Notes: a model not told the origin generated them from the letters alone. Shown: positions 32,149 to 32,303, counted from the stretch's first letter. The stretch is 64,000 nt of DNA from an uncultured bacterium (GCA_963719425.1 OY970382.1:586880-650879); one strand, 5' to 3'. Numbers and translations are program-made.

Positions 32149-32303
32149 ACAGGGGTCTTTCCCTTTCTGCTTTTGGTAGACGCGGTTCGCGCGCTCCTGC
32201 GGCGCGCGCCCGCTGGCTCTCGGCAATTCGCGTCCGCCTTCGGCGGACACCAAGCGCGAATTGCCTCCGAGATCCTCCCAAAAGCAGAAAGGGAAGACCC
32301 TGT
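32149..32303. repeat. 155-nt nested palindromic element (27-bp imperfect outer inverted repeat, inner 11-bp repeat GGCAATTCGCG/CGCGAATTGCC, central UUCG hairpin)
   Basis: It fills most of the spacer between the membrane-protein gene stop (32308) and the giant-protein gene start (32098). Confidence 0.55.

Follow-up and report, generated by a model that had tools for sequence, protein, structure and literature searches.

Introduction

In the 64,000-nt stretch of bacterial DNA analysed here (hereafter the window), the spacer between the gene of a small membrane protein and that of a giant surface protein is filled by a long palindrome, and the question this locus raises is what kind of element the palindrome represents. 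A preliminary description had offered three readings, namely an unusually elaborate terminator-insulator, a 5'-UTR regulatory RNA of the giant gene, or a palindromic mobile element. Homologues of the membrane protein are all found in MAGs of Patescibacteria (CPR), among them Minisyncoccia, Paceibacterota and Buchananbacteria. The genomes of this group are among the smallest and most compact, and the four non-coding elements of ~160 nt carried by the window, of which the palindrome, E4, is one, are a notable load. We favour, with moderate confidence, the reading that E4 is a non-autonomous dispersed hairpin repeat, belonging to a family designated C within a wider group of intergenic elements of Patescibacteria. 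Related loci and contigs used in the comparisons carry labels such as L001, L003, L172 and L178.

Position and fold of the element

E4 starts 4 nt past the stop codon of a 192-aa membrane ORF (32308-32886, minus strand), for which a Pfam search gave no match, and ends 50 nt ahead of the ATG of a 1400-aa LCAT/PG_binding ORF (27896-32098, minus strand), all genes around it being on the minus strand. Both this placement and the nested inverted repeats had been recognised from the outset. The outer arms are complementary apart from two 1-nt bulges, both in homopolymer runs, and form a closing stem of about 27 bp, while the inner 11-bp helix (32222-32232 with 32255-32265) is 100% complementary. The minimum free energy of the element is -98.6 kcal/mol on the minus strand and -99.1 kcal/mol on the plus strand, compared with means of -63 and -60 kcal/mol for dinucleotide shuffles (z = -8.3 and -9.7, respectively), and none of 200 shuffles folded as well. 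The architecture departs in two respects from the preliminary description. What had been seen as a rod of roughly 150 nt is a Y-shaped three-way junction with a GC-rich hairpin as its second branch, and the supposed UUCG core is an apical hairpin with a 3-nt loop (TCCGCC-TTC-GGCGGA), the tetraloop reading having added a G that is absent from the sequence. The parts of E4 are listed in Table 1, together with the adjoining leader and the other elements of the window.

Table 1. Positions of E4, its parts and related features in the window; the canonical (model) strand of E4 is the window minus strand.
Feature	Position	Strand	Basis or remarks
E1, family A, opposite orientation to E2	11290..11477	-	Between convergent genes, directly after an ordinary terminator
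E2, family A	18424..18595	+	27-nt arms, 96% complementary; HIT-S21 spacer
E3, between pilB and pilC	24251..24412	+	154-155-nt insertion relative to L178 (window 24252/3-24406)
Leader of the giant LCAT/PG_binding gene, not part of E4	32099..32148	-	Small conserved hairpin CCGC..GCGG just before the start codon
E4, whole element, probable family C hairpin repeat	32149..32303	-	Covariance model R1, fold z-scores
E4 closing stem, 3' arm	32149..32176	-	28 nt
E4 3' arm, outermost 6-9 nt, canonical GACCCCTGT	32149-32157	-	Host flank; found also in element-free relatives
E4 GC-rich side hairpin	32182..32213	-	Helices 96-99% paired, stems covary
E4 side-hairpin conserved loop, canonical GCCGCnGGAG (plus strand ctcctgcggc)	32194-32203	-	Alignment
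E4 long branch	32215..32275	-	Internal loop, 11-bp variable helix, 7-nt bulge and apical hairpin (alignments)
E4 conserved internal loop, canonical CUCGGAGGC / GCCGAGAG	within 32215..32275	-	Alignments
E4 apical 6-bp hairpin, 3-nt loop	32233-32247	-	Alignments
E4 conserved 7-nt bulge CUUGGUG	32248-32254	-	Alignments
E4 closing stem, 5' arm on canonical strand, ACAGGGTCTTCCCTTTCTGCTTTTGG	32278..32303	-	26 nt
E4 5' arm, outermost 6-9 nt, ACAGGGTC	32296-32303	-	Pairs with host sequence older than the insert

An inverted-repeat scan of the window returned four elements with arms of 20-35 nt and 95-122 nt between the arms, spaced 6-8 kb apart among essential genes. That long intergenic elements closed by inverted repeats recur in this genome had been noted before and holds true, but the recurrence had been understated, as E2 was missed. 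The inner ~130 nt of E1 and E2 are homologous in opposite orientations (local alignment score 48, shuffle maximum 28; nhmmer E = 8e-7), and their outer arms are unrelated to each other. Plain sequence similarity of E3 or E4 to the other elements of the window was not seen. The window also holds two short hairpins (10797-10844 and 26143-26178) with a common arm, TCCAGCCGTAGTTT, a sequence likeness that suggests a small REP-like repeat; in L178, the equivalent of the second (9938-9984) is a hairpin of unrelated sequence.

A family of related hairpins in Patescibacteria

Elements of the window and of related loci were grouped by sequence into family A (E1, E2 and L3a), family B (L1b, L1c and L1d) and family C (E4 and L1a), with a separate group formed by E3 and its one relative (L073:2857-2978). 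Families A and C have, by eye, a junction-side motif in common, (A/G)GAA(C/G)C..CGGAGGC on one side and GGTTC(C/T) on the other. The contig L001 carries four elements in 20 kb, some of them inside ribosomal-protein and fusA-tuf operons, and in L003 one element lies exactly between two convergent stop codons. An alignment of five family C copies from four genomes displays clear conserved blocks as well as swapped helices, and the covariance model built from it, R1, scores E4 at 134 bits on the minus strand versus 26.9 bits on the plus strand, which makes the orientation of E4 unambiguous; the match to E2 is weak (20 bits).

R1 matches were found in further loci of GTDB Patescibacteria (L006, L019, L024 and L028). 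A metagenome scan with the pattern GCTTGGTN{20,40}CGAGMRN{11,17}GCCGCNGGAG matched at least 120 loci, about 70 of which are true members of family C (60-125 bits), the rest being chance matches in GC-rich DNA; four pattern matches in viral contigs were not upheld by R1. In all, at least 71 sequences match the model (59-134 bits), from GTDB Patescibacteria MAG loci and metagenome contigs, at least 70 of them besides E4. The family C unit measures about 140 nt, and the wider group of elements in Patescibacteria intergenic spacers ~120-170 nt. The Rfam scan proposed in the preliminary description, run on the window, on E4 and on twelve related loci, gave no relevant family for the elements: E4 was without a match in Rfam 15 even at E <= 10, its best score (sok, 14.6 bits) facing a threshold of 59, and the elements of the twelve loci had no match either. 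A description of such repeats in Patescibacteria was not found in full-text literature searches, and the family C hairpin repeats appear to be previously undescribed.

Several structures of other kinds were encountered in the same material. At four loci (L101 1215-1540, L113 150-480, L128 5095-5400 and L158 2935-3265) the family C unit forms a single domain within a larger conserved structure, ~330 nt long, in which GAGCGGGCACGGT precedes the unit and GAGCGAGG ... CCTCGCUGGGG follow it; this could be a nested insertion or a bigger composite element. Long near-perfect hairpins without a core are present in L003 (20150-20241, 35-40-bp stem, 12-nt loop) and L001 (5616-5710, 26-bp AT-rich stem), and these may have arisen from the elements by deletion of the core, or may form a class of their own. 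A split 'autonomous' version, with 5' and 3' halves far apart, was looked for and none was found.

Covariation and strand-specific folding

The alignment of 71 family C sequences was fitted to the R1 structure, so that its pair counts lean towards that structure, but the effect far exceeds this bias: 94% of cells are standard pairs versus 57% in shuffled alignments, double-sided changes occur in 50 of the 52 pairs, every helix covaries, and the observed measures were reached by none of 500 shuffles. When the 3' partners were slid by 1-3 columns as a control, pairing fell to 36-44%. Among the unpaired parts of the canonical strand, those conserved are the bulge GCUUGGUG, the GA-rich internal loop and the loop of the side hairpin, and the junction is closed by GGAA/UUCC. 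Conservation is internal, the closing stem being long and near-perfect in every case and unlike in sequence from copy to copy. L122 and L069 differ in one helix by a 2-nt indel placed symmetrically in its two arms, and whole helices are swapped, by eye, between the L178 copy and the otherwise similar L1a.

The mismatches carry information on polarity. Across all pairs, the non-Watson-Crick cells on the canonical strand comprise 133 G·U and 40 A·C, and among isolated mismatches in otherwise perfect ungapped helices, a class chosen because the choice of alignment has no influence there, G·U outnumbers A·C by 70 to 18 (p = 2e-8). The all-pair counts show the same tendency in copies that are sense (22:5) and antisense (43:17) to their neighbours. 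Because a G·U pair on one strand is an A·C mismatch on the other, the constraint must apply to the fold of a single strand with canonical polarity, whatever the direction of the neighbouring genes. Read from the sequences, this bias implies a strand-specific single-stranded form, compatible with either an ssDNA intermediate or an RNA.

Covariation and strand-specific G·U tolerance are the generic marks of structured non-coding RNA, and both were found here, though they are equally expected for an ssDNA intermediate. They nevertheless favour a rival explanation, in which the family is a host-selected structured ncRNA, that is, a multi-copy small RNA or protein-binding module with a processing stem, e.g. 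for RNase III, made up of ancient paralogues and not of mobile DNA. The conserved loops, the bulge and the GA-rich internal loop would suit such an RNA, as would the long closing stem, given that in L007 (19054-19156) a tRNA gene lies inside a similar, perfect 22-bp inverted repeat that adds 14 bp to its acceptor stem, so that in this clade the repeat elements are not alone in having long perfect closing stems. The G·U bias, however, persists even where the opposite strand alone should be transcribed, and G·U pairs are rare overall (~4% of cells), a low share for a typical functional RNA. With the evidence on gain, loss and orientation presented below, we regard the ncRNA explanation as unlikely, though it deserves to be kept in view.

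Gain, loss and exchange at orthologous sites

The closest relative, L178 (PilB 93% identical, DNA 87-91%), is collinear with the window over 15.3-32.15 kb and has no element upstream of its giant gene. The blastn homology at this site ends at window position 32154, within the last 6-9 nt of the E4 3' arm, and beyond that point L178 has two unrelated genes, which places E4 exactly at a synteny break. By eye, the junction reads GGGAAA-GACCCCTGT-CAAGCG in the window and ATCGCG-GACCTTGT-CAAGCG in L178. A second relative, L173, whose giant-gene orthologue is 73% identical, is without both the membrane gene and E4; its tRNA-Ile is followed by 26 nt, then by ..TCCCTGT-CAAG.. and the same leader. The comparison of syntenic loci proposed in the preliminary description thus finds E4 absent from both relatives. 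In L172, where the membrane protein is 87% identical, an orthologous copy of E4 lies 4 nt after the stop codon and is identical at 50 of 55 nt up to the contig end, four of the five differences being in the outermost arm; this copy is no less conserved than the coding DNA next to it, a point in favour of the ncRNA explanation.

These comparisons also bear on the suggestion that E4 is a cis-regulatory 5'-UTR element of the giant gene. It does lie directly upstream of that gene and on its sense strand, but the two relatives without E4 both keep the ~50-nt leader, near-identical in L178 and in recognisable form in L173, and about 70 members of the family stand beside unrelated genes, in both orientations. 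Such a role seems to us scarcely credible. In L178, a preceding 219-aa ORF runs into the leader.

The surroundings of E4 are themselves variable. The segment from tRNA-Val through tRNA-Ile, ORF541 and the membrane gene to E4 (window 34683-34863 (-) to 32149) corresponds to four unrelated genes in L178 and is absent from L173, where tRNA-Ile abuts the giant gene, so that a flexible locus beside tRNA genes ends exactly at E4. The 192-aa membrane gene has 364 homologues and a new neighbourhood in every relative (L001 9795-11631; L003 10001-10757; L172), in each of which it touches a hairpin element. Since its context differs throughout, synteny around this gene supplied no empty site, though related elements were found in this way. 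In L001 the membrane gene and an NYN-domain gene are situated between the S10 and L3 ribosomal-protein genes, the pair being bracketed by two inverted family B elements like the cargo of a composite element.

At the pilB-pilC site, L178 has an empty spacer of 19 nt (CGCGAGTAGAACC-TGGTACAATAAAAGTATG), and the spacers of two more distant outgroups are likewise empty (25 and 55 nt), while the window reads CGCGAATGAGAACC-(CATATC...154 nt...GATATGGGTTC)-TGGTACAATAAGATTATG. E3 is therefore an insertion, with the left GAACC of its junction being host sequence and the right GGTTC having been brought with the insert. At a third site, the HIT-S21 spacer, the window carries a family A element (E2) and L178 a family C element instead (117 bits), whose 28-bp perfect arms take in the stop codon (TAG...CTA). 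Both inserts fall within the same interval of at most 5 nt past the stop codon, and the flanks are common to both genomes, yet the 25-28-bp arms are unrelated. We consequently rejected the idea that outer arms are, as a general rule, plain copies of the local flank: the flank-derived part comprises the last 3-9 bp only, and most of each 25-28-bp arm travels with the element.

The absence of E4 and E3 from L178 and the swap of families at the third site indicate recent mobility, elements being gained, lost and exchanged between genomes only ~10% diverged. This turnover, which leaves the neighbouring genes intact either way, speaks against the ncRNA explanation. Insertion usually takes place a few bases past a stop codon and without target-site duplication, as no direct repeat was seen at E3 relative to the empty site of L178, nor at E4 relative to L178 and L173. 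The suggestion that E4 is a palindromic mobile element is accordingly supported by the dispersed copies, by presence and absence, and by the family swap against a relative of 87-91% identity; these are outcomes that the preliminary description had named as counting against a regulatory role, save for the target-site duplications, which were not found. At E3 and E4, the sequence at the far end of the insert is complementary, in inverted orientation, to the flank, and complementary end pairs were recorded in three cases: ACAGGGTC/GACCCCTGT (E4), GAACC/GGTTC (E3) and TAG/CTA (the HIT-S21 copy of L178). In 3 of 3 cases (p ≈ 0.125), two of them with an observed empty site, complementarity links the canonical 5' end to the 3' flank; the orientation of E3 is weakly inferred from R1 scoring and a common GGCCGGAAGAGG motif, and in the L178 copy, where the empty site was not seen, TAG counts as host sequence on the ground that it forms the stop codon. 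As a rule, such complementarity is suggestive only. All-against-all BLAST of the flanks of 171 loci returned identical duplicates only and no filled/empty pairs, nor were contigs of the same species seen to differ in whether a copy was present, which counts against the mobile reading.

Genomic context and a possible role at gene ends

The genes beside the 70 further copies are unrelated housekeeping genes, encoding, e.g., UvrC, GroEL, Hsp70, FtsZ, RuvB and HisRS. Among the 25 Pfam families listed for these flanking genes there is no transposase, reverse transcriptase or integrase, and no RAYT or Y1 transposase is among those or among the 25 listed for the 64-kb window, a result that counts against the mobile reading. 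Between co-directional genes the canonical strand is sense in 11 copies and antisense in 11, and where one neighbour is known the split is 9 to 11. This lack of orientation bias is a further argument against the ncRNA explanation, as are the start of E4 only 4 nt after a stop codon and the want of any promoter-like signal, sigma-70-like sites showing no excess upstream on the canonical strand, with the qualification that this consensus may differ from CPR promoters. There is also no replication-strand bias in relation to local GC skew (24 of 59 positive). The divergence of copies points the other way: identity within contigs is 0.46-0.78, compared with a between-contig mean of 0.53 (8 within-contig pairs), although REPINs and MITEs are normally near-identical after a burst.

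As to the arrangement of the neighbouring genes, 18 copies lie between convergent genes and only 3 between divergent genes, and many are 4-30 nt from a stop codon. Together with the ability of the palindrome to fold on both strands and the location of E4 between a gene end and the leader of the next gene, this would suit a bidirectional terminator/insulator or an mRNA 3'-end stabiliser, selected primarily for its action at gene ends. The terminator scan, however, found none spanning E4; no T run follows the stem on either strand, the T run lying in the 5' arm on both, and ordinary intrinsic terminators with a GC stem and U-tract are present elsewhere in the same genome. E3, moreover, sits inside the pilB-pilC operon, where relatives have the short spacers given above; the upstream stop codon is the nearer one for 13 of the 22 copies between co-directional genes, which is no consistent preference; and a plain terminator function would leave both the asymmetric conserved motifs and the G·U bias of one strand unexplained. 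As the primary identity of the element, the terminator-insulator of the preliminary description is for these reasons highly unlikely, while the depletion between divergent genes leaves room for a secondary role as a transcript-end hairpin. At the locus itself E4, which separates the end of the membrane gene from the leader belonging to the giant gene, would act at most as a passive hairpin of this type.

Elsewhere in the window, a LOOT RNA (RF03000, 73 bits; 53391-53510 (-)) adjoins a stretch of lower GC content (46000-53400, 0.46-0.50) with a large serine recombinase (50435-51778 (-)), and a second ORF of the window also has recombinase domains; the stretch may be an integrated element. Pfam matches of window ORFs further include DprA (natural transformation), RmuC, two DNA methylases and a type IV pilus operon. 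RmuC has been linked to limiting inversions at short inverted repeats, and all of these functions could have a bearing on the uptake or processing of hairpin DNA.

A possible mode of propagation

If E4 is a mobile hairpin repeat, as we favour, propagation would pass through a folded single strand of one defined polarity, either ssDNA or RNA, and selection for the fold, rather than for a host function, would keep the helices paired and the loops conserved, the latter being probably protein-recognition features. The closing stem would be finished at each new site, where the 5' end of the element would pair with the host sequence just 3' of it, either because the site is chosen by its match to this end or because a nascent strand snaps back and copies the flank. 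Onward movement with the captured bases would turn the outer arms into lineage-specific patchworks and would account for their being unique. Hairpin-templated correction may keep the arms complementary while their sequence drifts, as suggested by the symmetric indel of L122 and L069 and the whole-helix swaps between the L178 copy and L1a.

The lack of greater likeness among copies of the same contig argues against a simple selfish repeat; it would follow from very rapid divergence of the helices or, alternatively, from copies of great age that have been maintained. Old, divergent copies that keep 94% pairing and conserved loops look like the product of host-level purifying selection on a functional RNA, and it is this within-contig divergence that keeps the ncRNA rival alive. 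A stronger version of the mobile reading, in which the family is a new kind of self-propagating structured single-strand element, with its site chosen or its closing helix completed by pairing of the 5' end to 3' host sequence, no duplication, captured flank carried onward, and mobilisation by an unrecognised enzyme or by its own chemistry, is speculative and in our judgement quite unlikely. Should the mobile-repeat reading be upheld, the family would provide a new repeat/RNA model for the annotation of CPR genomes, a marker for rearrangement breakpoints, given the location of E4 exactly at a synteny break, and a tractable case of palindrome insertion and upkeep in genomes with reduced repair.

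Comparison with known systems

The closest kinds of known elements are the REPIN/REP-RAYT repeats, hairpin elements of the IS200/IS605 type and classical MITEs such as Correia or ERIC. Like REPs and REPINs, which depend on RAYT/TnpA-REP HUH transposases (PMC3116915; PMC8049555), the elements described here are intergenic, strand-specific, single-strand hairpins that need no target duplication, are depleted from promoter regions and are vertically inherited over long periods. REPs, however, measure 20-40 nt and carry a conserved head, GTAG or CGTC, and REPINs occur in each genome as near-identical doublets, whereas family C forms a three-way junction of ~140 nt with a different closing stem in every copy. 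No GTAG or CGTC head was found, a subset having ..AGCGA 5' and GAGCG 3' of the stem, and the within-contig identity of 46-78% is far from that of REPINs.

With bacterial MITEs (Correia/NEMIS of Neisseria, ERIC/IRU, RUP and BOX) the elements share a size of 100-170 nt, a folded-back structure and multiple copies in intergenic or intra-operon spacers, and the small, non-coding, dispersed copies of family C likewise vary in presence and absence between relatives. The Correia/NEMIS, ERIC, RUP and BOX families have conserved terminal inverted repeats, and Correia a TA duplication. In family C, by contrast, the terminal arms are the most variable part, different in essentially every copy, with conservation confined to the interior, and there is no duplication at the two insertions with known empty sites.

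The two ends of an IS200/IS605 element are separate subterminal hairpins, and the target is a fixed sequence of 4-5 nt; here a single hairpin spans the whole element, the flank-complementary segment (3-9 nt) differs from site to site, and a bias relative to GC skew was not found. The derived PATEs ('peel and paste'), which belong to the same background of single-strand transposition (PMC6006769), are nonetheless comparable in the absence of target duplication, in hairpin dependence on one strand and in the recognition of flanking bases by pairing.

The attC sites of integrons combine a conserved fold with variable sequence, use one strand, and have an outer helix that is partly neighbouring DNA, so that an attC-like or other site-specific recombination site, folded as ssDNA, was considered for E4 as well. 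One stem end is indeed supplied by the target, and the junction-side GAAC...GTTC resembles the AAC/GTT core of attC. Against this, the elements lie 6-8 kb apart among essential genes without any cassette arrays; the motif is RRGAAC/GTTCYY (AGGAAC...GTTCCT), not RYYYAAC/GTTRRRY; orientation is independent of the adjacent ORF; no integrase is among the Pfam families listed for flanking genes, and the recombinases of the window are of the large serine type and in a separate low-GC region. This possibility is very remote.

The TIGR-Tas arrays of CPR bacteria and phages, in which stems are 'variable but consistently palindromic' (PMC12045711), offer a likeness in the variable palindromic closing stem and in the organism group. 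TIGR units are short and tandem, with box C/D motifs, two spacers and an adjoining Tas gene, and we rejected this identity for the elements described here, which are solitary, ~140 nt long, without box C/D by eye, and situated beside housekeeping genes. The family differs from known repeat families in several defining respects, and it unites features that are usually separate: conserved loops and covariation of RNA grade, folding specific to one strand, gain and loss among close relatives, insertion without duplication, and closing stems that are in part host sequence and unique to each copy.
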